Of a stretch of 64,000 bases of DNA, positions 24,527-35,908 are shown piece by piece. The stretch's first letter is position 1, and every line of letters starts with the position of its first letter. Both the position numbers and the translations under genes were made by a program. A model generated the notes under the pieces. The model did no database searches and was not told where the DNA came from. It saw only the letters and a program-made list of their open reading frames with translations. The stretch is from a bacterium. Its GTDB lineage: Bacteria > Patescibacteriota > Saccharimonadia > UBA4664 > JBBRNT01. The DNA lies in contig JAYUFZ010000008.1 in assembly GCA_043767845.1 (NCBI GenBank), positions 4,242 through 68,241 on the forward strand, in the 5' to 3' direction.

Positions 24527-26080
24527 ATGTTGATGAAACATGATGATCGATTCCGCTACCACGCCTTGGCGCTGTTTTTCGCAGTTGCCTTATTCCCGGC
24601 CGTTACAGTCAGTACCTTGTGGTATGTACTGACCCGCGCCACCACCTCTGGGAGCCTGGTAAGCTATGGAATAGTTGTACTACCGATCGCCATTCTTGGC
24701 CTGGCACCGGCTCTAGTTCTAAGCTTTTTCTTCGTTGAACTACTGGTGCAGCCGATCCGCCGCCTCCACCAAGCGATCGATGAAATAAGCAAGGGTAATT
24801 TTAACTTCCGAAGCCATTTCAAGAAGGGGAGCGAGTTCTACGAAATGGCCGAGTCACTCAATGGTATATCAAGTACCATGGAAGAGATCCTCAGCCAAAA
24901 AAGCGGCGAGAACGAGTTAATCGTAGCCGAGCGCAACAAACTGCGAGCCGTCTTAGACTCTATGGAAGATGGCGTATTTGCTATCGACTCCAGCGGCCGC
25001 ATAATGCTGTTCAATAAAGCCGCCCAGGAGATTACTGGCCGCTCGATAACCGAGGTTGCTGGACAGCTCTCAGAGAAAGTCATGCCACTACGCCGTGGCG
25101 AAGAATTGGTAATGGCCAGCTGGCTTGCCGATCGGCGGGTTGCCAAGCGCGAACTAGGCGAATGGCGCAACCTTACACTCTACCGAGCCGATGGCGATAA
25201 GCTCTTCGTCGATGTTCGAGCTATCAAACTCCCCAGCGACCCGAACGGTATCCAGGCCCTAGTGACCTTCCACGATCTTACCAAGAGCCACAATCTGGAG
25301 GAAATGAAGGTCGACTTCGTGTCTCTGGCGGCTCACGAACTGCGGACACCACTGACCGCTATAAAAGGCTATCTAGACGTGCTCGAAACCGAGACAGAGG
25401 GGGAGCTGTCGGTCGACCAGCAGCAAATCCTAGCCCGCACCATCATTAGCGCCCGGCAGCTCTCTGGAGTGGTTAATAATATATTAAACGTCTCCCGTAT
25501 TGAGCGCGGCGAACTGGCCCTGAACTTCGAGATTATTGACCCCAAAGCACTCGTCCACAACCTAAAGATCGACTATGATGTTCGCGCCCAGCAACAAAAC
25601 CGCCAGCTCGAAGTCCACTACGGCAGCCACTTGCCGGCGATAAACGTCGATCTGGTGGGTATTACCGAAGTCATGAATAACCTCGTCGATAACGCCATCA
25701 ACCATACCGAACCGGGCGGCAAGATCGATATCAAACTTAGCTTCATCAAAGACAATCAGGAATTGGAAATAATCGTCACCGATGACGGCCACGGCATACC
25801 AAAAGCCGCCATTCCCAAATTATTCACCAAGTTCTACCGGGTCGAGGGCCTACACACCACCAAGGGCACTGGCCTCGGCCTCTTCATCTCCAAATCGATT
25901 CTCGAAGCATTCGGCGGCCGCATTTGGGTAGAGTCCGAGGAGGGCCACGGCGCGAGTTTTAGCTTACGGATCCCAGCGGCGCAGCTAGTTGCAGAGAAAG
26001 AACATGCGTCGCATAATAGTAGAACAAGTGGCTCAATGAAAGGAACTCATGGCTGGATCAAAGACCATTCTATTCGCTGA
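24527..26080 (+). CDS. Sensor histidine kinase (2 TM, HAMP, PAS, HisKA, HATPase_c)
   Basis: H-box LAAHELRTPLTAIKGY, plus N-box and G-boxes (DDGHGIP, GTGLGL). Confidence 0.8.
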   Translation: MLMKHDDRFRYHALALFFAVALFPAVTVSTLWYVLTRATTSGSLVSYGIVVLPIAILGLAPALVLSFFFVELLVQPIRRLHQAIDEISKGNFNFRSHFKKGSEFYEMAESLNGISSTMEEILSQKSGENELIVAERNKLRAVLDSMEDGVFAIDSSGRIMLFNKAAQEITGRSITEVAGQLSEKVMPLRRGEELVMASWLADRRVAKRELGEWRNLTLYRADGDKLFVDVRAIKLPSDPNGIQALVTFHDLTKSHNLEEMKVDFVSLAAHELRTPLTAIKGYLDVLETETEGELSVDQQQILARTIISARQLSGVVNNILNVSRIERGELALNFEIIDPKALVHNLKIDYDVRAQQQNRQLEVHYGSHLPAINVDLVGITEVMNNLVDNAINHTEPGGKIDIKLSFIKDNQELEIIVTDDGHGIPKAAIPKLFTKFYRVEGLHTTKGTGLGLFISKSILEAFGGRIWVESEEGHGASFSLRIPAAQLVAEKEHASHNSRTSGSMKGTHGWIKDHSIR

Positions 26081-26426
26081 AGATGATCGCTTTATTAGCG
26101 AAATGTATTCGCGCGTTCTCCAAAAAGCAGGCTACACCGTAGACTTCGCCTACACCGGCTCCGAAGCCCTCAAAAAGGCTCAAGGTGGCAAATTCGACCT
26201 TATCCTGCTCGACATCATGATGCCCGAGAAAACCGGCATTGAAATCCTTGAGGAGCTGCGTGGTGCCGACGGCAAGGGCGCGCCAGATACCAAGATTATT
26301 ATTCTCACCAATCTAGCTCAAAACGTCGCTAGCCAAGACCAGCTCAAGGCTTTGGCCGATGGCTACCTTATAAAAGCCGACATCGTACCCAGTAAGCTGG
26401 TAGAGCTTATCAACGGACTCTGGTAA
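26049..26426 (+). CDS. Stand-alone response-regulator receiver domain (CheY-like, no output domain)
   Basis: ILFAEDD…DLILLDIMMPEKTG…K carries the Asp pocket and phospho-acceptor Asp. Length 125 aa. Confidence 0.8.
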   Translation: MAGSKTILFAEDDRFISEMYSRVLQKAGYTVDFAYTGSEALKKAQGGKFDLILLDIMMPEKTGIEILEELRGADGKGAPDTKIIILTNLAQNVASQDQLKALADGYLIKADIVPSKLVELINGLW

Positions 26427-26538
26427 GTCAGTATTATTCTACAAATTTTAGAGCCAACCAAGACGTTTATACTACTTATGCTATTGACAATATCTTGCCT
26501 CTACGTAAGAATAATAGGTAACTAACCAAAAAGAAAAA

Positions 26539-27693
26539 ATGCCTACAAAAAAGTCCACTAAAAGCAAAACACCAACAGCCACTCGTTCGCGCGTTGCTCA
26601 TGCTAAGCCAGTCATCGCTACCGAGTCCGGCTGGGCGAAACGCAATCTATTGATTATGGCAGGGGTAGCAGTTTTGGCAGTTGCCGTGGCAGCCAGTGCC
26701 TACATCTACACGACCAAGCACAAGACTGTCACCAAGACGCCTGTCACACTGACTAAGGTCAAGGTCAAGCTCAAGTGGCTCCACAACGCCCAGTTTGCCG
26801 GCCTCTACTATGCCAAAGAAAAGGGTTATTTCGCAGCTGAAGGCTTGGACGTGAGTTTTGAAGAGTGGTCGAGTACCCGTAGTTCGGCAACCAAGATCGT
26901 TGATGCCAAAGAAGCAGATTTCGGTGTTTCAACTGGTACCGATATCATCAACGCCAGAGCCAACTCCGGCCGCAAGGTCGTTGGACTGGCCACTGTCTTC
27001 CAGCATGACCCTGAAGGCTATGTAGCCCTCAAATCATCAGGCATTACTGACCTCAAAAGCGTTGCCGGCCATAATGTTGGGCTCTTCCCTGGAAAGACTA
27101 CGACTATATGGAATGCTATGCTCAAGGCCCAAAACCTATCAAGCCTTAGCTTCAAGCAGACGAATATGGACTTCAGCAAACTGCCCAAGCCTGAGACTAA
27201 GGTCTTGACTGACAAAACAGTTGATGTCTACGCCACCTTCCTGACCGACCAAGCCGTCCGTCTCAAGGCTGACCTAGCGGCCAGTGGCTCGAGCGACGAG
27301 ATCGTGACCTTCAACCCCTACGACTATGGTATTGCCAACTACAATGACACACTCTTCACCTACGATGATATGGTTAAAAACAATCCGGCTCTGGTTCAGA
27401 AATTCGTCAACGCCGCAGTCAAAGGTTGGCATGACGCTATAGCTGACCCGACCGGCGCAGTCACCGCCATCCACGCCTACGACGGTGCCGACTATAAGCC
27501 CTACGAAGCCGCTATTTTCAAGGCCGAAGTGCCTTTCATCCAGACCAACGATGTGCCTCTGCTCTGGACCGATGGTGCAGTCTGGAAGGGTATGTATTCG
27601 ATGATCAACGCTACTGGCTCGCTCAAGACCCAGATCGACGTTACAGCCGCCTACGACTCAAAGTTTGTCCGCAACTACTACAACATCAAGTAA
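26539..27693 (+). CDS. NMT1/THI5-like periplasmic substrate-binding protein (nitrate/sulfonate/bicarbonate/HMP family) with N-terminal TM anchor
   Basis: LKWLHNAQFAGLYYAKEKGYF is the family hallmark. There is a TM anchor. No permease or ATPase genes are adjacent; the protein sits between the kinase genes. Confidence 0.6.
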   Translation: MPTKKSTKSKTPTATRSRVAHAKPVIATESGWAKRNLLIMAGVAVLAVAVAASAYIYTTKHKTVTKTPVTLTKVKVKLKWLHNAQFAGLYYAKEKGYFAAEGLDVSFEEWSSTRSSATKIVDAKEADFGVSTGTDIINARANSGRKVVGLATVFQHDPEGYVALKSSGITDLKSVAGHNVGLFPGKTTTIWNAMLKAQNLSSLSFKQTNMDFSKLPKPETKVLTDKTVDVYATFLTDQAVRLKADLAASGSSDEIVTFNPYDYGIANYNDTLFTYDDMVKNNPALVQKFVNAAVKGWHDAIADPTGAVTAIHAYDGADYKPYEAAIFKAEVPFIQTNDVPLLWTDGAVWKGMYSMINATGSLKTQIDVTAAYDSKFVRNYYNIK

Positions 27694-27711
27694 TAGCTAG
27701 AGAGATCACCA

Positions 27712-29565
27712 ATGAAGCTGGCTAATAGGAGTTCGCTTAGCACCAAGCTAACCGTGTACTTCCTAATAGCCGCTTTGTTGCCGGTTGGCATTGCAGGCGT
27801 GTTGATACTGAGAGTAGCCCAGAAAAACATCGACACATTGACCTTTTCAAACTTAGAACTAGCCAGAAACCTCAAAATCAACCAGATCAATCTATTGATA
27901 GAAAAAGAATCTGAGGTAGTAAATGCACTATCTAAAACCCAGACGGTTCAAGATAGTGCCATGAGCTTAAAAAACAAGCAGCCCCTCAGCCCTGCGCAAT
28001 TGTCTGCTTATAAGCCGCTCGTTGAAGTCGAGGGTGAATTCATTGAGGTTTTTCTCATAGATAGTGAAACGGCTAAGGTTTATGCATCAAGCAATACGGC
28101 CGAACTTACAAAAAACAAACAACTTGATGAATCGTTCGTACGTGGCAAGCAGGCGCTATTTGTACAAGATTTATATTTCGACTACTCTAATTTTGTACCG
28201 CGATATACTATCACCACTCCAATCATTATCGGCGGCCAATTGGTGGGTGTCTTCGGTGCTCATCTCGAACTCGATGCCATCGACCAGATCATGGCCGAGC
28301 CCCTAGGTATTGGCGATACCAGCGAGACATATTTAATTAATAAAGCGCATCAGTTCGTCTCAGACAGTCGCTTCGATCCGAATTCCAAATTCAATCTAGG
28401 TCTCAATACGGCACAGTCGGAGTCGGTATTGGCGGGCAAGGAAGGAAAAGGAATTTACAAGAATTACCGCGGCAAACTCGTGTATGGGAACTACGTCTAC
28501 ATTCCTGAGAGACACCTAGCAATCTTCGCCGAAGTTGAGCAACACGAAGCACTGGCCTCACTCCGTGAATTTGAACGGCTTATCTTGTATGCAGCTCTGG
28601 CTAGCTGCCTCTTTCTCGTCCTACTCACGCGCTTGTTTACCAACCAATTCTTAAAGCCGATAAGAAAGCTAACCGAGGGCGTAGAAGCCTTCGGCCGTGG
28701 CCAGCTGACGACGCGTATTAGTATTACTTCCAAAGATGAGGTCCGCAAGCTAGCTGAAACCTTCAATAGCATGGCCCAGTCGGTCCAAGACAGCATTACC
28801 AAGCTGCGCGAGCTGGATAAACTCAAATCCGAGTTCCTAGCCATTGCCTCGCACAACCTACGCACACCGCTGTCGGTCATCATGGGCTACGCCGATGGTA
28901 TGCGCGATGCTAACAATAAGCTCAATAAAGATGCCGCTATCATTGGCTCCTACGCCCAGCGACTCAACGTCTTTGCTGAAGATATGCTACTAATCTCTGA
29001 AATTGAGATTGGCGGCAATCTGGCCACCGTTACTCAAAAAACGCCGACCGACATCACTACGCTCATCGGGGAGATAGCTACGCAGATTACCCCGATGGTC
29101 TCAGAGAAGAAGCTATCTCTAGGAGTAGTAGCCGCCAAAAAAATCCCGATGGTCAATATTAATAAGCAATATGTTAAAGATGCCATTTGGAATATCCTCG
29201 ATAACGCTATAAAATTCACCGGCGAGAACGGCATTATCACCATGACGGCCAAGCCGGTCAAGGACAAAGTGACGGTCACTATTGCCGATACTGGAGCGGG
29301 TATCGCCAAGGAAGAGCTACCAATGCTCTTTACCAAATTCCACCGCGGGACTAGCACTATGGTTTACAACTACGAGGGCACCGGTCTCGGTCTGTACGTC
29401 GCTAAGCTGATTGTGGAGAGTAATGGGGGGCAGATAGAGGTTGAAAGCGTCGAAGGTAAAGGAACGACAGTGACGCTTATGTTCCCCGTAGCGCCAGTCG
29501 AGCCAAAGTCCAAGGACGCCCTCACCCCCAAAGCTGTCAAAACCATCGCCGACACATTGGAGTAG
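27712..29565 (+). CDS. Sensor histidine kinase with extracytoplasmic Cache-like domain, HAMP, HisKA, HATPase_c
   Basis: H-box IASHNLRTPLSVIMGY. G-boxes DTGAGI and GTGLGL. Two TM segments flank a ~250-aa sensor domain. Confidence 0.75.
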   Translation: MKLANRSSLSTKLTVYFLIAALLPVGIAGVLILRVAQKNIDTLTFSNLELARNLKINQINLLIEKESEVVNALSKTQTVQDSAMSLKNKQPLSPAQLSAYKPLVEVEGEFIEVFLIDSETAKVYASSNTAELTKNKQLDESFVRGKQALFVQDLYFDYSNFVPRYTITTPIIIGGQLVGVFGAHLELDAIDQIMAEPLGIGDTSETYLINKAHQFVSDSRFDPNSKFNLGLNTAQSESVLAGKEGKGIYKNYRGKLVYGNYVYIPERHLAIFAEVEQHEALASLREFERLILYAALASCLFLVLLTRLFTNQFLKPIRKLTEGVEAFGRGQLTTRISITSKDEVRKLAETFNSMAQSVQDSITKLRELDKLKSEFLAIASHNLRTPLSVIMGYADGMRDANNKLNKDAAIIGSYAQRLNVFAEDMLLISEIEIGGNLATVTQKTPTDITTLIGEIATQITPMVSEKKLSLGVVAAKKIPMVNINKQYVKDAIWNILDNAIKFTGENGIITMTAKPVKDKVTVTIADTGAGIAKEELPMLFTKFHRGTSTMVYNYEGTGLGLYVAKLIVESNGGQIEVESVEGKGTTVTLMFPVAPVEPKSKDALTPKAVKTIADTLE

Positions 29566-29644: not shown

Positions 29645-29719
29645 CGGTCCCATCGTCTAACGGTTAGGACACCGGATTCTCATTCCGACAATCGGGGTTC
29701 GATTCCCCGTGGGACTACC
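29645..29719 (+). tRNA. tRNA-Glu(CUC), CCA encoded
   Basis: GGTCCCATCGTCTAACGGTTAGGACACCGGATTCTCATTCCGACAATCGGGGTTCGATTCCCCGTGGGACTACCA. Acceptor 7 bp (one G-U pair). Anticodon loop UUCUCAU. Resembles the bacterial tRNA-Glu consensus TCGTCTA…AGGACACCG. Confidence 0.8.
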
Positions 29720-29727
29720 ACAGAAAA

Positions 29728-29756: not shown

Positions 29757-29812
29757 CAGGAAGTTACTAAGCCAGAACTTACAAAAAACAGCCCCACCGC
29801 CAGGTCCCAGGA
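29757..29812 (-). repeat. Copy A of a ~50-nt terminator-like element
   Basis: Minus-strand reading: CCCCACCACC-TATCCCCTCCTGGGACCT-GGCGGTGGGG-CTGTTTTTT. About 85% identical to copy B at 31258..31312. Each copy sits 50–65 nt past a minus-strand stop codon. Confidence 0.6.
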
Positions 29813-29855
29813 GGGGATAGGTGGTGGGGCGAAGGAGTCGCTAGACAAAGCTAGC

Positions 29856-31235
29856 TCAGGCAGGCAGGGCTTTAGGCCATTTGATGTTACGAATGTGGCC
29901 AGTGCGGTCGATCTCACCGTCGAGATGTTGGGACTTATGGAGCTGGTCCCAAACGTTTTGCTGCAAGCTACGGGTGTAGCTTTTGGCGTTATCGGCGCTG
30001 AGCGTTACAGTATAGCTTTGGTCGGTGCGGCCGCTGAGACGGTGGCTGGCATCAATGCCCTTGAAATCGGGCCAATGCGGATTATCGAGCTCTCCACCGT
30101 GGCCACCGGCTACTTCCCAGTGGTCGGAAGCCCAACGTTCAATGTCGTAGCGATACTTGGTCGCGTAGACCGGATCGTTGCGATAAACCGGGTCATTGCT
30201 ATAGGTGTAGTACACTTCGGTGCGCGTCTTGGACCGGCTACCAGTACATTGCTTTGTTCGCTCAGTGAAGGTGCCGTTGCCATTGCTAACCGTCTCAGAC
30301 CCGCAGTCATAGGTGTAATTTTCCGTGCCATCGGGAACGTCGCGTGCGTGACTATGGCTATTGGTTTCGTAGTGGTCAACGACCTTATTGTATCGAAAAA
30401 CCGCCGGGTAGTTACTCGTTTCGCGGCCTCCAGCCGGAACCGTCCAATCCTCTTCATGGAAAGTCTGGATTGATTCGACTTCCACCTGACGCTGCCAATT
30501 GAGCTCGCTAACTGTAAGAGCCAGAGGCTTGGTAGAAAGGAACAGGAAGTGGACGACCATATAGGTGAGCAGCAGCGTCAGGATCACACCAGCGGCAATA
30601 AACTCCCACCGGTATTGCCGATAGGCCTCACCGATATTCTTTGGCTTAGCCTTGTAACTTTCGACGCGAGTAGCGATCTGTCCAGTGCGGGGGATCTGCG
30701 AGCCTCGATGGGTGTAGTGTTCGGCGGTGCGGACATCGTCACTGTGCCCGGTTATGAGCCTTTCGCCCTCAACGAGCGGGTCGGGCAAGAGTCTTTCGAT
30801 GCGAGCGTCGGCTTCGACCGTATCTTTGTCGAAATGAACGCCCTTGGCGTAGTCACCAGTGACGTATCTGGCTACTGGAGCCGTGAAATCGTCGCCGTCG
30901 CGCTTTTGCCCACAATGCTGACAAAATTTCTGGTTGCCTTGATTAGTAGTGCCGCAGTGGCCGCAATTCCATTCCGCACCGGCGTTTGCCAGTGCAAGCT
31001 CGGCGGCATCCGTAATCTCTCGGGCACCGCGCGGTAGGTATGGCGCTTCTTCGGGAGTCAACGTCACATTGCGCGGATCGTGGCAGTTTGGGCATGTTGT
31101 CGTTAACCCAGGGATGCCAGTAGTGAGACAGTTCGAACAATCCCACATGCCTTCGAGAGTTTTCAATCGTACCTCCGGTAATTGTAGGAACATATCAAGG
31201 TGCCGGCATATTATGAAACTATTCTTACTAAACAT
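29856..31235 (-). CDS. Hypothetical protein with two N-terminal zinc ribbons, one TM, and a ~230-aa extracytoplasmic C-terminal domain
   Basis: CSNC…CPNC and CGHCG…CQHCG zinc-ribbon pairs. TM segment FIAAGVILTLLLTYMVVHFLFL. The C-terminal domain is rich in Tyr, Asn, Thr and Ser. The ORF track starts on a TTG at 31238, so the adjacent ATG was used. Has its own terminator and is GC-rich. Confidence 0.5.
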   Translation of the reverse strand: MFSKNSFIICRHLDMFLQLPEVRLKTLEGMWDCSNCLTTGIPGLTTTCPNCHDPRNVTLTPEEAPYLPRGAREITDAAELALANAGAEWNCGHCGTTNQGNQKFCQHCGQKRDGDDFTAPVARYVTGDYAKGVHFDKDTVEADARIERLLPDPLVEGERLITGHSDDVRTAEHYTHRGSQIPRTGQIATRVESYKAKPKNIGEAYRQYRWEFIAAGVILTLLLTYMVVHFLFLSTKPLALTVSELNWQRQVEVESIQTFHEEDWTVPAGGRETSNYPAVFRYNKVVDHYETNSHSHARDVPDGTENYTYDCGSETVSNGNGTFTERTKQCTGSRSKTRTEVYYTYSNDPVYRNDPVYATKYRYDIERWASDHWEVAGGHGGELDNPHWPDFKGIDASHRLSGRTDQSYTVTLSADNAKSYTRSLQQNVWDQLHKSQHLDGEIDRTGHIRNIKWPKALPA

Positions 31236-31257
31236 CAATATTATTATTTCAACAATA

Positions 31258-31312
31258 AAAAACAGCCCCGTAGCCAGGTCCCAAGAGGGGATAGGCAGTG
31301 GGGCTTGGGCCG
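31258..31312 (-). repeat. Copy B of the terminator-like element
   Basis: Shares the loop TATCCCCTC(T/C)TGGGACCTG, the GGGGC…GCCCC arms and the T-run with copy A. Confidence 0.6.
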
Positions 31313-31370
31313 CGGATGGCGGCTAGGGGATGTGCAGTAGCACATGGTAATCGGCAGGGATTGGACGGGG

Positions 31371-32570
31371 TCAAATCTGAGTCAGAACTCTTAGGATCAT
31401 GCCGACCATCGACCAATCGACTGTTTCGGCCTCGAGTATTTGGCCCAGGGTGGCGACTTCGACATAGGTGCGTTCGGTGCTGCCGGGGGCGCCGTGCGGC
31501 TGGCCGTATTGACCCTTGAGGTAGGTGATTTCGGTGTCGGTCAGGTCGACGGCGAAAAGGGTGGCTTTGTGGGCCGAGAAAGTGGCCATAAGCTGCCTTT
31601 GGCCACAGGGGACAAAGCGCTCAAAGGCCAGGTCCAAGCCCGTTTCTTCCTGGCATTCGTGCTTGGCAACCAAGCGCGGATCGGTGACCATCTGTGGATC
31701 GGAGCCTCCGGGCAATTCCCAGACATACCCAGAATCGTTGGAGACCGAGGGGCGGAACTCCCGGATCAGCACCACGGTACTGTCGTTGATCGGTACTGCC
31801 CTACGATAGAGCATCACGGCCGAAATGTCCGGCCTGGAAAGCACGATCTCATTGGTCTTGGAACGGCCTTCGGCGGCGATGTAGACCTCGACGTGCAGGG
31901 CCCACAAGTAAACCCTTTGCAGCTGAGGCCCTTTACGCACCGTCGTAAGCACGCGGGCATGCTCCAGCGTATTACCCGCTGCCTTGAGGGCTCGATACCA
32001 GCTCTGGAAATGCGTGGTCCGCCAGATGTAGAGCGGCACTTCGCGCTCGCCGTCACTACGCCAGCTGCCTTCGCCAAGTAGCTCAATGGCCCTAGCAACG
32101 GTGCCGGCCGGCGTGTCAGAGAATGGTACCTGGAATTTTTCGGCCTTGTACCCTAGATAGCGGTTTTTGACGCTTTCGTAGGGAAATCCCAGCACGATTT
32201 TGCCGGAGTCTTCCCATTCGCCCCACTCCACATTGGTCGTAAAGCCGGGCATGGTTTCCAGGTCGCGTGGCACCCAGGCAAGGATCACATCGGCCAAGTG
32301 CAAGCAGGTTGTTTCCCACTTCACTTGGTCGAGGTACTCACCGCGGTAGGTGGTGACGCCGTTGGAGTCGGGCCGGTCTTCGGGCACAAAAACCACGCCG
32401 TCGTAGCCGAGCATGGCCAGGTAACGCAGGGCCTCGGGCCGCCAGGAAGTTACACCCTCATGCCGCGGTGTCGGGCCAAGCAGGAAAATCGATTTTGCAT
32501 AGCTAGCCGGTGGTTCTTCGCGAGCGTAAACAATTGTCATAGTACGAGGTGGTGCAGTGGCCTCAGTCAT
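31371..32570 (-). CDS. Fusion protein: N-terminal nucleoside 2-deoxyribosyltransferase-like (NDT/DNPH1/Rcl-type Rossmann-like) domain plus C-terminal Nudix hydrolase domain
   Basis: N-terminal IFLLGPTP…GYDGVVFVPED…ADVILAWVP is an NDT-like pattern. The Nudix box is ELPGGSDPQMVTDPRLVAKHECQEETGL (GX5EX7REUXEEXGU). About 60–70% GC in sampled stretches, against about 47% in the flanking kinase genes. Minus-strand -35/-10 candidates lie at about 32610..32640. Confidence 0.6.
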   Translation of the reverse strand: MTEATAPPRTMTIVYAREEPPASYAKSIFLLGPTPRHEGVTSWRPEALRYLAMLGYDGVVFVPEDRPDSNGVTTYRGEYLDQVKWETTCLHLADVILAWVPRDLETMPGFTTNVEWGEWEDSGKIVLGFPYESVKNRYLGYKAEKFQVPFSDTPAGTVARAIELLGEGSWRSDGEREVPLYIWRTTHFQSWYRALKAAGNTLEHARVLTTVRKGPQLQRVYLWALHVEVYIAAEGRSKTNEIVLSRPDISAVMLYRRAVPINDSTVVLIREFRPSVSNDSGYVWELPGGSDPQMVTDPRLVAKHECQEETGLDLAFERFVPCGQRQLMATFSAHKATLFAVDLTDTEITYLKGQYGQPHGAPGSTERTYVEVATLGQILEAETVDWSMVGMILRVLTQI

Positions 32571-32742
32571 GGCTAGCCTCTCGGGGGTAGAAAAACTTTT
32601 CAGAACTCTGTTGTTATATCATCGAGCTGCAGGCTTTACAAGCATCAGCTGACTTTTGATTAAAACATCGCTACAAAATCTGCAAATAATTTGTAAACTT
32701 TGTGGTGCGTCCCGCCGATGGCGGGACTGTGGGGCAGAGCCC

Positions 32743-33045
32743 CTAGGTGGTCACAATGTGGAAGATTATGGCCAGCCCGGAGACGATGCCCATGACGTAG
32801 AGCAGGAGCAACAGTATGGCAATGGTTTCGCCGCGGCCGTTGCCGTTGAGGCGGGAGAGCTTGTAGAGGCTGGTGACCCCGAGTAGGAACACAGCGGCGG
32901 TCAGCCTGAGCGCTTCGCTCGATTGGGCACCCGGCAGATGGCTGGAGAGCCACCACAAGGTCAGCGCGGCCGTGGCCACGAAGCAGACGGTGGAGAGCTT
33001 GCCCCAGACCTGGGCGCGGCTCGGCGAGTAGGTCGACATTGTCAT
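32743..33045 (-). CDS. Small 3-TM membrane protein (~100 aa)
   Basis: Three hydrophobic helices. GGAGGA SD 5 nt upstream of the ATG at 33045 (the ORF-track TTG is at 33057). The perfect hairpin GTCCCGCC-gat-GGCGGGAC lies just downstream at 32714..32732. Confidence 0.45.
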   Translation of the reverse strand: MTMSTYSPSRAQVWGKLSTVCFVATAALTLWWLSSHLPGAQSSEALRLTAAVFLLGVTSLYKLSRLNGNGRGETIAILLLLLYVMGIVSGLAIIFHIVTT

Positions 33046-33233
33046 CTGATCCTCCAAGGATCGTGTGGGTACGGCTACTTAACCTAGCAGATGAGGATCC
33101 TTCAATGGATGTACTATTGTATTACTTTACTGTACTTTTGTCAATATTATCAATCATCGAGCCGATCCCGTCCCTAGGATAGGCTTTTAGATTGAAATAT
33201 TGCCCCCGACGCTGCATAATAAGCGTAACAACG

Positions 33234-35108
33234 ATGGTGGAGATGGCGGACCAAAAGGATCGAAATCTCAATATTCTAGCGGCCGTCCAGGCAGCCCTGG
33301 GGGCGCTTATTAGTAGTATCATCCTGATTCTTTTCAAACTCAACCCCAACTATTTGCGTGATGCTGGACTGAGCTGGGTGGTGGTGATACTCGGCTTCAC
33401 CGTGGTCGGGTATTTCCTGAGCGCGCACCAACTGATTCGCTACTTCAGTACTTCTATATCGGTCTTTATTATGTCCTGCATCAGCATTGCCAACCTGGTG
33501 CTCGTCATTGCCCAAACCGGTGGCCTCGACTCGCCCTACAATGCTTTTTTGATACTTGCGTTGGTAACCACTGGGTTGTTTAGTCTGGTAGCGACGATCA
33601 TTGGGCTCACGGCCCTCATAACCTACTATGTCGTTGCTTTTGCCCAACACCATTTCGAGTCCAGCTTTTTGGCGGCACACCTTATCCAGTTCGTCATGAT
33701 GCTCTCGGCCGGGGGCCTAGCACTGTGGGTACATAACCGTGGGCGCAAAACAGTCGCTCAAACCCAGCAAATGGCTAGCCTTTCTGGGCAGCTCGGCGAA
33801 GAGCAGCTTAAAGCCCAAGTACTCATGAATAGTATGGGTGAGGGGGTAGTAGTGGTAAACACCAGCCGCCACGTCCAGCTCTTCAACCCGGCGGCCCAAG
33901 CGCTCACCGGCTGGGACGCGGCCACAGCCCAAAACTTGAACTATCTGACCATCATGGGGCTCAAGAAAAACAACGACAGCGATGTGACCGACGCCGACGA
34001 CCCCTTCCTCCAAGCTTGGGAGAAAAAAGCCACTGTAATACGTAGCGACCTGATACTCGGCACCAAGTCCGGACGCAAAGTCGCCCTGACCATGACAGTT
34101 TCACCAATTTATGACGGAAATAACAATATCTCCGGCGGTATTGCCCTTTTCCGTGATATATCGCAGGAAAAAGAGGTTGAGCGCCAACGCAACGAATTTA
34201 TTTCCACTGCTAGCCATGAAATGCGCACCCCGGTGGCCGCAATCGAAGGCTACATAGCTCTAGCCATGAACCCAGATATCTCCACCATCGATGAGCGGGC
34301 GCGCGGTTTTCTGGGCAAAGCCCATGATAGCATCCAGCATCTTGGCGCGCTGTTTAAAGACTTGCTCTCGGTCACCAAGGTCGAGGAGGGGAAGATCGGC
34401 GGCGCCATTGAGCCAGTCGAAATCGGCAAGATGGTGCGCGAAGTGGTCAGTGACATGCAGTTTAATGCTCAGAAGAAGAACCTGACGCTGCTGTTGCAAT
34501 CCGGGGGCATGACCTTGGGCGACAAAGACGTCATGCCCCTCTTCATGGTCAAGGGCAATGGCGAGCGGCTGCGGGAAGTGACCATGAACTTAATCGAAAA
34601 CGCCCTTAAATACACCCAGCAAGGAGGCATAACCGTCGACGTCTCCGGGACAAAGGACTTAGTGACAGTGAAGGTCATCGACACCGGCGTCGGGATTGCC
34701 GCCGAAGACATTACCCATTTGTTCCAGAAATTCTACCGTGTCGATAGTACTGCCACCCGCACTATTGGCGGCACCGGTCTAGGCCTCTACTTGGTACGCA
34801 CCATTATCGAGTACTTCAACGGCCGCGCTTGGGTGGAAAGCATACTCGGCCGGGGTAGTACTTTTGCCTTTAGCCTACCACGCGTCGCCAACGACGCCAC
34901 CGCTGCCAGCCTCAACGATGCGGCAGCAGCCACGGCTCAAGCGCCAGGTTCGATTCTTCCGTCACCCTCGCCCAAGCCTGCACCAGCTCCCACCGAAACC
35001 ATCATTCATCCCGTCGTCGTGGCGGCTCCAGCAGTGCAGGAAATGCCCGTCCCGGCCAGTATGCAGAGCACACCACTCCCAGAGAGCAGCCTTGCCAAGC
35101 CAGTGTAA
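33234..35108 (+). CDS. Sensor histidine kinase (multi-TM N-terminal region, PAS, HisKA, HATPase_c) with Pro-rich C-terminal tail
   Basis: H-box FISTASHEMRTPVAAIEGY and G-boxes. About 5 TM helices at the N-terminus. The ORF-track start is a TTG at 33192, so the ATG at 33234 was preferred. Confidence 0.75.
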   Translation: MVEMADQKDRNLNILAAVQAALGALISSIILILFKLNPNYLRDAGLSWVVVILGFTVVGYFLSAHQLIRYFSTSISVFIMSCISIANLVLVIAQTGGLDSPYNAFLILALVTTGLFSLVATIIGLTALITYYVVAFAQHHFESSFLAAHLIQFVMMLSAGGLALWVHNRGRKTVAQTQQMASLSGQLGEEQLKAQVLMNSMGEGVVVVNTSRHVQLFNPAAQALTGWDAATAQNLNYLTIMGLKKNNDSDVTDADDPFLQAWEKKATVIRSDLILGTKSGRKVALTMTVSPIYDGNNNISGGIALFRDISQEKEVERQRNEFISTASHEMRTPVAAIEGYIALAMNPDISTIDERARGFLGKAHDSIQHLGALFKDLLSVTKVEEGKIGGAIEPVEIGKMVREVVSDMQFNAQKKNLTLLLQSGGMTLGDKDVMPLFMVKGNGERLREVTMNLIENALKYTQQGGITVDVSGTKDLVTVKVIDTGVGIAAEDITHLFQKFYRVDSTATRTIGGTGLGLYLVRTIIEYFNGRAWVESILGRGSTFAFSLPRVANDATAASLNDAAAATAQAPGSILPSPSPKPAPAPTETIIHPVVVAAPAVQEMPVPASMQSTPLPESSLAKPV

Positions 35109-35185
35109 TCTTGTTAAGCTAACACTAGAAATTGGTTCCAAGTACCAGATGTGACGCGATAGAGTAATTAAATAGGTAATCCACC

Positions 35186-35908
35186 ATGCCAAAACTGCTG
35201 CTCGTCGAAGATGACATTAATTTGCGAGATATCTACTCGGCCCGCTTCATGGCTGAGCAGTACACTGTCATCACCGCCGCCGACGGCGAGGAAGCCCTAG
35301 CGACAGCTGTTCGTGAACGCCCCGACTTAATTATTCTCGATGTCATGATGCCGAAGATAAGTGGCTTCGATGTCCTAGACATTCTGCGTTCGACACCCGA
35401 GACCAAAGAAACCAAGATCATCATGATGACCGCTCTTTCCCAAGAAACAGACAAGGCTCGTGGCGAAGCATTGGGCGTTAATAAGTACCTCATCAAGTCC
35501 CAAGTGACCCTAGAGGACGTCGTCAGCTCGGTCAAAGAAATCCTCGGCGGGAGCACTGTGCCAGCTGGTGTCGTCACGAGCCCTGTTGTCGCACCAAGCT
35601 CACCCACAGCCACCAACGCACTGGCCGAGCCCGAAGTTACCGCCCCACAAGTCACGCCAGGTGCCGATGCAGCAGTAACCACTGAGCCCGAAACCGCAGT
35701 CACAGAGCCTGATTCGAGCACTACTTCAGCTGATATGGATGAGCCAAAGATGGCTACTAGCCCAACAGAACCTGCTATCACTACTGCCAGTATCGCCGCA
35801 GCACCTGCTAGCAGTAATGACAGCCAAGCCTCTACTGGCTCGTCGTCGAGCGCCCCGAGTGAGCCAACACCTGGCGCCGATACCAGCTCCAGCGAAGCAA
35901 TCCTCTAA
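35186..35908 (+). CDS. Response-regulator receiver domain fused to a ~120-aa Ser/Thr/Pro/Ala-rich disordered tail (no DNA-binding output)
   Basis: LLLVEDD…DLIILDVMMPKISG…K receiver motifs, then the low-complexity tail VVAPSSPTATNALAEP…. Confidence 0.7.
   Translation: MPKLLLVEDDINLRDIYSARFMAEQYTVITAADGEEALATAVRERPDLIILDVMMPKISGFDVLDILRSTPETKETKIIMMTALSQETDKARGEALGVNKYLIKSQVTLEDVVSSVKEILGGSTVPAGVVTSPVVAPSSPTATNALAEPEVTAPQVTPGADAAVTTEPETAVTEPDSSTTSADMDEPKMATSPTEPAITTASIAAAPASSNDSQASTGSSSSAPSEPTPGADTSSSEAIL

Follow-up and report, generated by a model that had tools for sequence, protein, structure and literature searches.

What a protein that joins a nucleoside 2-deoxyribosyltransferase (NDT)-like domain to a Nudix domain does for the cell is the question raised by a gene at positions 31371..32570 (minus strand) of the 64,000-nucleotide stretch of Patescibacteria DNA analysed here (the window). 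The initial annotation had proposed an enzyme degrading dNTPs or dNDP-X compounds via dNMP to the free base. The reading we favour, to which we give a probability of roughly 60%, is that the fusion is a bifunctional enzyme recycling the by-products of NAD consumption.

The open reading frame encodes a 399-aa protein with an NDT-like N-glycosidase domain followed by an ADPRase-type Nudix domain, and it is a genuine gene in which both domains were confirmed. A 79.8-kb NCBI contig in a public collection encodes an identical protein; 1821 homologues were found at E ≤ 1e-3, the best 120 of them nearly all full length, and the AlphaFold model of the 399-aa protein has a mean pLDDT of 89.9. Reading of the sequence gave a Shine-Dalgarno-like GAGAGG 6 nt 5' of the ATG (32577..32582, minus strand) and, about 65 nt past the stop codon, a GC hairpin followed by a T-run (31257..31304, minus strand), which from its shape is a candidate terminator. 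This hairpin is one copy of a 48-nt direct repeat with two matches in the window against none expected by chance; the second copy (29783-29830), with 88% identity, follows the next gene. Upstream lies a hydrophobic ORF of 100 aa (32743..33045, minus strand; GGAGG and an ATG at 33045), preceded by a promoter-like site matching at 11 of 12 positions (33144-33116), and this ORF and the fusion gene are possibly co-transcribed. A 100-aa gene is called at the same position on the contig encoding the identical fusion protein; the ORF had no match in Pfam, PHROG or PADLOC and is not kept beside fusion homologues in the sampled loci. An integrated island beside tRNA-Glu is possible, although its GC content does not stand out from that of the right flank.

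The 399-aa protein had no match in NCBIfam, PHROGs or PADLOC, and we found no published characterisation or description of an NDT-like/Nudix fusion, in agreement with the initial annotation, which had not recognised it as a characterised family. The fusion is an uncharacterised, strongly conserved two-domain enzyme family. It is compact, with 907 representative clusters at E ≤ 1e-30, and its relatives occur in 574 of 185,579 species genomes and give 138 matches in predicted phage contigs. Members were found in bacteria of the candidate phyla radiation (CPR), actinomycetes, myxobacteria, Shimazuella and giant phages, among the last as gp334 of Bacillus phage G.

The N-terminal domain (aa 11-165; 32076..32540, minus strand) has a flavodoxin-like fold and matches PF15891 above the curated threshold, with profile and fold in agreement; the NDT/DNPH1-like fold first suggested for this half was borne out. 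A residue census and alignments place a candidate catalytic glutamate in a loop-helix motif that follows the fourth strand, T111-T-N-V-E115-W-G117 (32220..32240, minus strand), of which T111, T112, N113, E115 and G117 are invariant or near-invariant over 125 fused and 29 stand-alone copies. E115 itself is missing from a single fused copy (124/125) and from no stand-alone one (29/29), and E115, R36 and T111/T112/N113 are each kept in at least 123 of the 125 and in all 29. The aligned segment of 4mcj is TLLEMGL, whose Glu falls at E115. Alignment by hhalign of the N-domain profile with rat Rcl (2khz) was non-significant (E 0.041, probability 1.3%) and served as a motif register only; it places the E115 motif on GVGYELG of Rcl, in which E93 is the nucleophile. 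In that register the near-invariant R36 (in GPTPR) and T111/T112 may correspond to GSIRGG and S87 of Rcl, and they could bind a 5'-phosphate as in the monophosphate-specific members of the superfamily. We take the N-domain to be a genuine, conserved NDT-like catalytic domain with E115 as its candidate Glu. It is joined to the second domain by a helical linker (aa 166-198; 31977..32075, minus strand), delimited from the secondary structure of the model and the residue census, in which G174, P179, W183, F188 and W191 are invariant; this segment is missing in stand-alone N-domain proteins.

The C-terminal half (aa 199-399; 31374..31976, minus strand) contains the Nudix alpha/beta/alpha fold that the initial annotation had assigned to it, preceded in the model by three long strands (201-213, 219-231 and 236-245). 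The beta-sheet extension that they form is packed on the Nudix core, the arrangement by which the dimer-swap domain of the ADP-ribose/NDP-sugar class is recognised. In a structure search 166-176 residues aligned with 1viq, 1viu and 5c7q, and the best structural matches were ADP-ribose/NDP-sugar hydrolases and NrtR rather than MutT-type NTPases, which lends no support to the dNTP or dNDP-X substrate originally envisaged. By structure the domain falls in the ADP-ribose/NDP-sugar class and not the MutT class. A BFVD fold search gave generic Nudix matches only. In a single-sequence PDB search a match to emerin LEM was dismissed as spurious, the remaining matches being only marginal Nudix ones.

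The Nudix box, by contrast with its earlier description as canonical, is degenerate (GGSDPQMVTDPRLVAKHECQEETGL, aa 288-312; 31635..31709, minus strand, from the residue census). The three metal-binding glutamates are kept among the 125 copies (E305 in 125, E308 in 123 and E309 in 125), but the signature Arg (position 304, occupied by E52/D21/H17/A10/K5) and the first signature Glu (position 296, variable) are not conserved. Spacing deviates by 1-2 residues, and of the full signature GX5EX7REUXEEXGU only E-x2-E-E-x-G-U is present (E305, E308, E309, G311 and L312). For PF00293 the window protein scored 17.6 bits against a gathering cut-off of 21.1; a precomputed PF00293 match is recorded for 7 of the 120 listed homologues. 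Classical ADPRases are marked by a proline about 15 residues after the Nudix box, a marker that Dunn et al. are said to have described in 1999. This proline is absent here, positions +15/+16 being L327 and M328, and the family consensus in the region reads R325-Q326-x3-T330-x-S332-x-H334. Elsewhere in the C-domain E234, R236, K238, R246, E271, R273, Q326, E366 and D385 are invariant or nearly so in the 125 copies. In the NrtR family, perturbed Nudix signatures accompany loss of ADPRase activity (PMC2330246), and with a degenerate box the Nudix half of the fusion could therefore be a poor catalyst or serve to sense a ligand. The objection that the protein might be an ADPRase with an unrelated N-terminal extension applies to one half only: the Nudix domain is ADPRase-like, but the N-terminal part is genuinely NDT-like.

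Phages also carry the N-domain on its own or joined to a metallophosphoesterase, and at eight phage loci a metallophosphoesterase, fused or adjacent, takes the place of the Nudix domain. This exchange of partners fits a cleavage of phosphoanhydride or diester bonds coupled to base removal, and it reinforces the two-step scheme that had been proposed, a diphosphatase followed by an N-glycosidase yielding base and pentose-5-phosphate, which we retain. The stand-alone N-domain genes were rejected as split fusions because no separate C-domain homologue was found near them in the phage loci.

The genomic neighbourhoods point to the pathway. Among the best 80 of the 574 genome loci, 25 have NAD genes within 8 kb of the fusion gene; these loci span many CPR classes and differ in gene order, and the NAD-salvage partners in CPR are NrtR, PncA, PncB, NadD, NadE and NadK. 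Full operons of the form NrtR-NadE-(radical SAM)-fusion-PncA-PncB-(NadA)-NadD were present at eight loci (L025, L026, L066, L037, L038, L058, L014 and L006). Confirmed neighbours are NAPRTase, NAD synthase, NAD kinase and NrtR_WHD with NUDIX, together with a nicotinamidase (NF008623, E 6.5e-50) and an ADPR-responsive repressor (NF050029, E 8e-49). At L038, L058, L037 and L049 a gene for an ADP-ribosylglycohydrolase (PF03747, E 1e-43 to 1e-52), an enzyme whose product is free ADP-ribose, abuts or overlaps the fusion gene. No PncC- or Apt-like small genes were found in the CPR operons, whose ORFs of about 165 aa are cytidylyltransferase-like or belong to no family. The other 55 of the 80 loci, among them every one from Actinomycetes, Myxococcota and Shimazuella, have no NAD neighbours; in Actinomycetes the gene is vertically syntenic beside der/cmk. 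The radical SAM gene is an unexplained partner of the fusion gene.

A palindrome found de novo in these loci, TAGTGTA-N5-TACACTA, contains GT-N7-AC, the published core of the NrtR operator (PMC2330246). Some 1.2 Mb of genome loci contain 36 copies with no more than two mismatches, including 10 perfect ones, where chance was estimated to give about 4 and 0.005; about 1.2 Mb of viral loci held a single site. The sites lie just 5' of nadE, nadK, pncA, pncB, nadD and nrtR, and 2-112 bp upstream of the fusion gene at L037 (38 bp), L046 (112 and 38 bp), L045 and L081, while at L032 the site is upstream of a radical SAM-fusion pair. We regard it as a candidate NrtR operator for Patescibacteria.

In the window itself no homologue of PncA, PncB, NadD, NadE, NadK or NrtR was found across the 64 kb, and the NrtR-type palindrome had no site at up to three mismatches. 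Though it stands apart from NAD genes, it presumably does the same job as its relatives in the operons. The earlier idea of nucleotide scavenging by a symbiont had the right direction, given a Patescibacteria window and the link to NAD salvage, but the pathway is better described as recycling of pyridine nucleotides or ADP-ribose. Anti-phage defence, also proposed, found no such footing: PADLOC-DB gave no match at E ≤ 0.1 for the fusion protein or its two neighbours, and the conserved neighbours of the family are NAD-salvage and ADP-ribose genes, not defence or dNTP genes. A defence island was likewise rejected, as no neighbour is of a defence type.

On the NAD-recycling reading, the Nudix domain would cleave the diphosphate of free ADP-ribose, or less probably of a closely related NAD-derived dinucleotide, to a nucleoside 5'-monophosphate and ribose-5-phosphate. 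The N-domain, through E115, would then release the base from a nucleoside 5'-monophosphate by breaking its N-glycosidic bond; candidate substrates are AMP from the first step and NMN produced by NAD-dependent DNA ligase. The end products would be adenine or nicotinamide as the free base and another ribose-5-phosphate, and these could feed PRPP-dependent PncB or NAMPT, and PncA. Within this reading the sequential route from ADP-ribose through AMP to adenine and two molecules of ribose-5-phosphate is put forward tentatively, NMN as the substrate is a little more doubtful still, and other NAD-derived ribonucleotides are unlikely. For phages the NMN variant is weakened, since at two loci (L156 and L096) NAMPT is encoded near the family gene and hydrolysis of NMN beside it would be futile. 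It is possible, at odds well short of even, that the NDT-like domain is the long-sought N-ribosidase for nucleoside monophosphates in the pyridine nucleotide cycle, either the NMN nucleosidase (EC 3.2.2.14), for which to our knowledge no gene has yet been assigned, or a nucleosidase dedicated to AMP and coupled to the diphosphatase acting on ADP-ribose.

The phage neighbourhoods, sampled as the best 80 of 138 IMG/VR loci, some of them redundant, are mixed and bear on two other explanations. At least one NAD or ADP-ribose gene lies near the family gene at 29 of the 80 loci (NrtR-like at 12, PARG at 7, NAMPT and ARH at 5 each, PARP at 4), but the commonest immediate neighbour, at 13 loci, is a dNMP-kinase-like P-loop protein (PF21448, E 2.6e-5, below its cut-off); adenylate-kinase-like P-loop proteins, adenylosuccinate synthetase and Ro60/TROVE also occur, and in Bacillus phage G the gene sits among replication genes, with DNA polymerase and ribonucleotide reductase. 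PDB searches with two frequent phage neighbours, the dNMP-kinase-like protein and a GIY-YIG fusion, gave nothing useful. The kinase-like neighbour and the phage G setting, together with the DNPH1/MilB fold and Glu motif of the N-domain, would suit an enzyme that sanitises or depletes dNTPs or modified dNTPs for defence or pool cleaning, the Nudix domain converting (d)NTP to (d)NMP and the DNPH1-like domain dNMP to base and deoxyribose-5-phosphate; with a Nudix domain nearest the ADP-ribose class, we think this very unlikely. We give similarly poor odds to a role in conflict, in which the protein would destroy NAD or immune signals derived from ADP-ribose, for example countering TIR/Thoeris-type signalling or acting as a toxin-like NADase followed by ADPR clean-up. 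The frequency of the family in predicted phage contigs and in phage G, and the PARP, PARG, ARH and NAMPT neighbours, would accord with such a role, as would the kinship of the NDT fold to TIR and ADP-ribosyl cyclase NADases, to which a single weak ThsB match (E 0.73) may be added. Against it, the cellular gene is housekeeping in style, lying in NAD biosynthesis operons with a putative NrtR operator or in vertical synteny with der/cmk, and neither a PADLOC match nor a toxin/antitoxin-like pairing was found.

The remaining alternatives concern what each domain does. The degenerate Nudix domain might bind ADP-ribose or NAD as in NrtR and switch the N-glycosidase on or off, leaving the NDT-like domain as the only catalyst. 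This is unlikely, as the near-invariance of E305, E308, E309 and many charged C-domain residues is more typical of an active site, and its replacement in phage fusions by a metallophosphoesterase, a catalytic domain, suggests a catalytic partner. Classical NDTs are transferases using the same Glu-based chemistry, and the NDT-like domain could in principle exchange the base of a ribosyl-5-phosphate donor instead of hydrolysing it, as in a switch between nicotinamide and nicotinate on NMN/NaMN. The fusion gene does lie beside PncA and PncB, and CD38 is reported to exchange the base of NMN to give NaMN (PMC11903787). Yet DNPH1 and MilB, the members of the fold that act on monophosphates, are hydrolases, and conversion of nicotinamide to NaMN is already covered by PncA and PncB of the same operon; we consider a transferase highly improbable.

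If the NAD-recycling reading is correct, one protein family fills a step of NAD turnover, which decides what becomes of free ADP-ribose and of NMN or AMP. If, beyond that, the NDT-like domain is the NMN or AMP nucleosidase considered above, the fusion would define an unrecognised branch of NAD recycling, from ADP-ribose/NMN to free base and ribose-5-phosphate. Such a branch would be common to CPR bacteria, actinomycetes, myxobacteria and giant phages, and the phage copies would help to rebuild NAD after NAD-depleting immunity. The step in NAD turnover would count above all for CPR symbionts, with their minimal metabolisms, and for giant phages with their own NAD-rebuilding genes, and the family is a testable candidate for an orphan N-ribosidase activity.

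Among known systems, the N-domain is comparable to the nucleoside-5'-monophosphate N-glycosidases DNPH1/Rcl and MilB/BlsM but has no significant sequence similarity to them by hhalign, and those enzymes act on dNMP/hmdUMP or CMP/hmCMP, have no Nudix fusion and lie outside NAD operons. Its PF15891 relative 4mcj (BDI_0649 of Parabacteroides distasonis; 'Nucleoside 2-deoxyribosyltransferase like') is a stand-alone protein of 150 aa whose deposition labels it uncharacterised, and no function can be transferred from it. Metallophosphoesterases of the ADPRibase-Mn type are a functional analogue of the alternative phage partner, kinship being established at the level of the Pfam superfamily (Metallophos_2/Metallophos). 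The classical ADP-ribose/NDP-sugar pyrophosphatases (E. coli NudF, 1viq, and YffH/NudK, 1viu; Bdellovibrio NudF, 5c7q; T. thermophilus Ndx2; human NUDT5) are stand-alone proteins with the full GX5EX7REUXEEXGU box and, in the ADPRases, the downstream proline, both of which are missing in the fusion family. The NadM-Nudix proteins, which unite NMN adenylyltransferase with ADP-ribose pyrophosphatase (Synechocystis slr0787 and Francisella; 2qjo, 2qjt), differ in that the partner there is a nucleotidyltransferase and here an NDT-like N-glycosidase, and in that the Nudix box of the fusion family is without the signature Arg and first Glu; if our reading holds, the fusion would join NadM-Nudix as a second case in which an ADPRase domain has been enlisted for NAD homeostasis.

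The initial annotation had placed a fusion of a nucleoside 2-deoxyribosyltransferase (NDT)-like domain with a Nudix hydrolase at 31371–32570, and the ORF listing returned exactly this frame: a minus-strand gene with an ATG start, encoding 399 aa (stop codon counted in the coordinates) and preceded at 6 nt by a ribosome-binding site, GAGAGG, seen on inspection of the sequence. The public protein collection already contains an identical protein, encoded on a 79.8-kb NCBI contig. Of the two proposed domains, the N-terminal one was recovered by Pfam as PF15891 (Nucleoside 2-deoxyribosyltransferase like; aa 26–128) at 36.5 bits, above the gathering score of 30, whereas the NUDIX match (aa 258–322) reached 17.6 bits, below its gathering score of 21.1; NCBIfam, PHROGs and PADLOC gave no match for the fusion protein. 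Comparison of domain profiles with the PDB upheld the NDT-like fold of the N-domain (4mcj, E 1.9e-9) and related the C-domain to NudK, ADPRase and NUDT5 (E 2e-3 to 8e-3). In a confident AlphaFold model built with 30 homologues as input (mean pLDDT 89.9, pTM 0.84), three long strands (aa 201–245) ahead of the Nudix core match the ADPRase N-terminal extension.

Residue conservation was assessed in 125 non-redundant full-length fused copies, which were compared with stand-alone copies of the N-domain. L30, G32, P33, R36, W43, P63, W85, R102, T111, T112, N113, E115 and G117 (numbering of the window protein) were invariant or nearly so, and were kept in both fused and stand-alone copies. E115 falls on the Glu of 4mcj's TLLEMGL motif; in rat Rcl (the sequence used being identical to 2khz_A) it pairs with the GVGYELG Glu in an hhalign alignment that was non-significant (E 0.041). 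Since the PF15891 threshold is passed and the candidate catalytic Glu is kept, the N-domain of the fusion belongs to the PF15891 NDT-like family. The Nudix box, GGSDPQMVTDPRLVAKHECQEETGL, had been described as canonical, but its fit to the signature is limited to the E-x2-EE-x-G-U part: the metal-site Glu residues are retained (E305 in 125, E308 in 123 and E309 in 125 of the 125 copies), the signature Arg position is taken by E, D, H, A or K, and the position of the first signature Glu is variable. Classical ADPRases carry a proline downstream of the Nudix box, which in this family is replaced by R-Q-x3-T-x-S-x-H. Because both the strict signature and the ADPRase proline failed, the protein was not filed as a classical ADPRase.

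A word-indexed search found 1821 related proteins at E ≤ 1e-3, the best 120 of which were nearly all full-length fusions of 337–428 aa with 48–64% identity. A profile search of 1.84 billion representatives gave 2175 relatives at E ≤ 1e-3 and 907 at E ≤ 1e-30, almost all of ~380–405 aa. In a 185,579-species genome set, 574 stretches encoded a relative, the hosts being many Patescibacteria/CPR classes, Actinomycetes (Actinomadura, Spirillospora, Thermomonospora, Glycomyces, Dactylosporangium), Myxococcota, Shimazuella and some MAGs labelled Gammaproteobacteria or Planctomycetota. IMG/VR added 138 such stretches, and the cultured giant Bacillus phage G (497 kb) has a full-length member, gp334 (NC_023719.1, 244460–245650; locus L163; 46% identity), annotated only as 'NUDIX hydrolase' and neighboured by replication genes, including split DnaE-like polymerase genes, and a homing endonuclease.

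In 80 genome loci (the best 80 of the 574), the ORFs up to 5 kb away from the gene were clustered, and recurrent neighbour clusters were named by Pfam and NCBIfam and then mapped across the whole loci. NAD genes were present in 25 of the 80, all CPR-type or MAG; by our rough estimate a random gene has a ~2% chance of being found no more than 8 kb from such an operon. PncA-type nicotinamidase (NF008623, E 6.5e-50) and PncB (NAPRTase) each occurred in 16 loci, glutamine-dependent NadE in 13, NadD-like proteins and NrtR (Nudix plus NrtR_WHD; NF050029, E 8e-49) in 11 each, NAD kinase in 8 and NadA in 7. A complete salvage operon, its gene order varying among lineages, encloses the fusion gene in loci L025, L026, L066, L037, L038, L058, L014 and L006, and ADP-ribosylglycohydrolase genes (PF03747) abut or overlap it in L038, L049, L058 and L037. 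In 10 genome loci the fusion gene is directly adjoined by a gene for a radical SAM protein of ~291 aa (L066:5140–6015, L025:7048–7920, L023:14–325, L032, where it lies upstream, L071 and five others), which has no family assignment and only weak similarity to MoaA, viperin and NrdG. This gene lies within NrtR-type NAD operons, and in L071 stands without any other NAD gene; no obvious part in NAD salvage suggests itself for a radical SAM enzyme. The quinolinate synthase NadA is found in CPR salvage operons (L025:11388–12557, L026, L066 and four other loci) and neither NadB nor NadC was seen in the CPR stretches examined alongside it, an odd partial de novo pathway.

When short inverted repeats were counted upstream of the labelled genes, one palindrome was outstanding, TAGTGTA-N5-TACACTA, with 36 sites at no more than two mismatches and 10 perfect sites in the ~1.2 Mb of genome loci, against ~4 and ~0.005 expected by chance on our own estimate; an equally large viral set held a single match. 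Most sites immediately precede nadE, nadK, pncA, pncB, nadD or nrtR, and for about a dozen the nearest 400 bp contain no labelled gene start; the genome loci bearing them include L011, L023, L025–L027, L030, L032, L035, L037, L038, L043, L045, L046, L049, L058 and L066. L037, L045, L046 and L081 each have the palindrome directly ahead of the fusion gene, L046 with two sites, and in L032 it precedes the radical SAM–fusion pair. Its centre, GT-N7-AC, is the core reported for most NrtR operators, and ADP-ribose was shown to release NrtR from DNA (Rodionov et al., PMC2330246); clustering of nrtR with draG was noted in the same work. As judged from sequence, the palindrome is a candidate NrtR operator of Patescibacteria, and its position upstream of the fusion gene makes the family a predicted member of an ADP-ribose-responsive NAD regulon in several CPR lineages. 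In the window the palindrome was not found, nor does any NAD gene lie within its 64 kb; the operon evidence extends to this copy by way of orthology, at 48–55% identity to the copies embedded in operons.

About 65 nt downstream of the window gene is a GC-rich hairpin with a T-run (31257–31304, minus strand), the first copy of a 48-nt direct repeat; the second (29783–29830, minus strand; 88% identity) carries the same hairpin and T-run after a gene for a 460-aa protein. With two copies in the window against none expected by chance, it resembles a small repeat element or an intrinsic terminator used more than once; the terminator scan missed it because the loop is long. The 460-aa protein (29856–31238, minus strand) has N-terminal zinc-ribbon motifs and a hydrophobic segment and no family match (DZR, Zn_Ribbon and HypA-like matches were weak, all below cut-off); its exact sequence is absent from the protein collection, and its gene is not kept beside homologues of the fusion gene. 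These two genes and a 100-aa membrane ORF form a minus-strand block (29856–33057) that is directly preceded by tRNA-Glu(CTC) (29646–29720) and flanked by plus-strand histidine-kinase genes (27712–29565 and 33192–35108). The block could be a small acquired islet; its GC content is indistinct from that of the right flank. Two-component genes are dense on both sides (24527–29565 and 33192–35908), with three HAMP/PAS histidine kinases, an NMT1/THI5-like binding protein and a response regulator, and scpA, scpB, rluB, dacB and der come after this run. The closest relatives of the window Der GTPase are proteins named from Parcubacteria, Saccharimonadales and Patescibacteria (55–63% identity), which suggests that the window comes from a Patescibacteria genome. 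The fusion gene's homologues in Actinomycetes come straight after cmk-der, and proximity to der thus recurs in very distant lineages.

Among 80 IMG/VR loci (the best 80 of the 138, partly redundant), 50 carried the full fusion and 30 the N-domain only, as proteins of ~150–170 aa with 37–50% identity, near which no separate C-domain homologue was found. In five loci a calcineurin-like metallophosphoesterase takes the place of Nudix and is joined to either end of the N-domain (Metallophos_2; L138:7443–8447, L139:7440–8432, L149:6675–8282, L154 and L157), and a metallophosphoesterase gene is adjacent to the N-domain gene in L151, L158 and L162. At least one NAD/ADP-ribose neighbour was present in 29 of the 80: NrtR-like Nudix+WHD proteins in 12, microbial PARG in 7, and NAMPT and ADP-ribosylglycohydrolase in 5 each. 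Four loci encode WGR–PARP_reg–PARP proteins, and in two of these the gene immediately follows an N-only gene (L155:8468–9973; L162, 58 bp downstream). PARG, ADP-ribosylglycohydrolase and NAMPT recur across giant-phage-like contigs. Other recurrent neighbours were dNMP-kinase-like P-loop proteins (13 loci), adenylate-kinase-like proteins (8) and Ro60/TROVE (10), with vWA proteins and adenylosuccinate synthetase likewise. The phage neighbourhoods gave a mixed picture.

The ADPRase-type fold of the Nudix half, the abutting ADP-ribosylglycohydrolases, the predicted ADP-ribose-responsive operator and the NAD-salvage partners together point to a function in NAD/ADP-ribose turnover, to which we assign a probability of roughly 0.6. 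The repeated pairing of the N-glycosidase domain with one or the other of two unrelated phosphoanhydride/diester hydrolases is suggestive of a reaction in two successive steps. In the most coherent scheme, the Nudix domain would convert ADP-ribose to AMP and ribose-5-phosphate, and the NDT-like domain would then strip the base from a nucleoside 5'-monophosphate, giving ribose-5-phosphate for PRPP-dependent PncB or NAMPT, plus free base. AMP as the second substrate fits every context and entails no futile cycle. With NMN as that substrate, the close association with PncA would be explained and the orphan NMN nucleosidase step would gain an enzyme; beside a phage NAMPT, NMN hydrolysis would be futile.

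The initial annotation had instead proposed that dNTPs are converted via dNMPs to free base. The dNMP-kinase-like neighbours in phage loci would suit such a substrate; the NAD/ADP-ribose neighbours and the ADPRase-class Nudix fold favour the other reading, and dNTPs appear improbable. Loss of the signature Arg and first Glu would be consistent with a degenerate Nudix domain acting as a sensor, which the near-complete retention of the metal-site Glu residues makes unlikely. PARP-like genes beside phage copies might hint at a role in conflict or in degrading a signal; set beside the salvage operons of cellular loci, this seems about as improbable as the dNTP model. Base exchange by a transferase would accord with the NDT-like fold; the characterised members of the fold that act on monophosphates, DNPH1 and MilB, are hydrolases, and base exchange seems highly improbable.

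The proposed NAD/ADP-ribose turnover is a familiar metabolic theme and the family is assembled from known folds; it is also widespread and strongly conserved, its context is informative and its function directly testable. The literature searched, with subscription journals outside the search, contained no description of the fusion, in agreement with the initial annotation, which did not recognise it as a characterised family. In logic, the closest characterised analogue is NadM–Nudix, which joins an ADPRase to an NAD enzyme and belongs to NrtR regulons; in fold, NudF-type ADPRases and 4mcj, an uncharacterised PF15891 protein, come closest.
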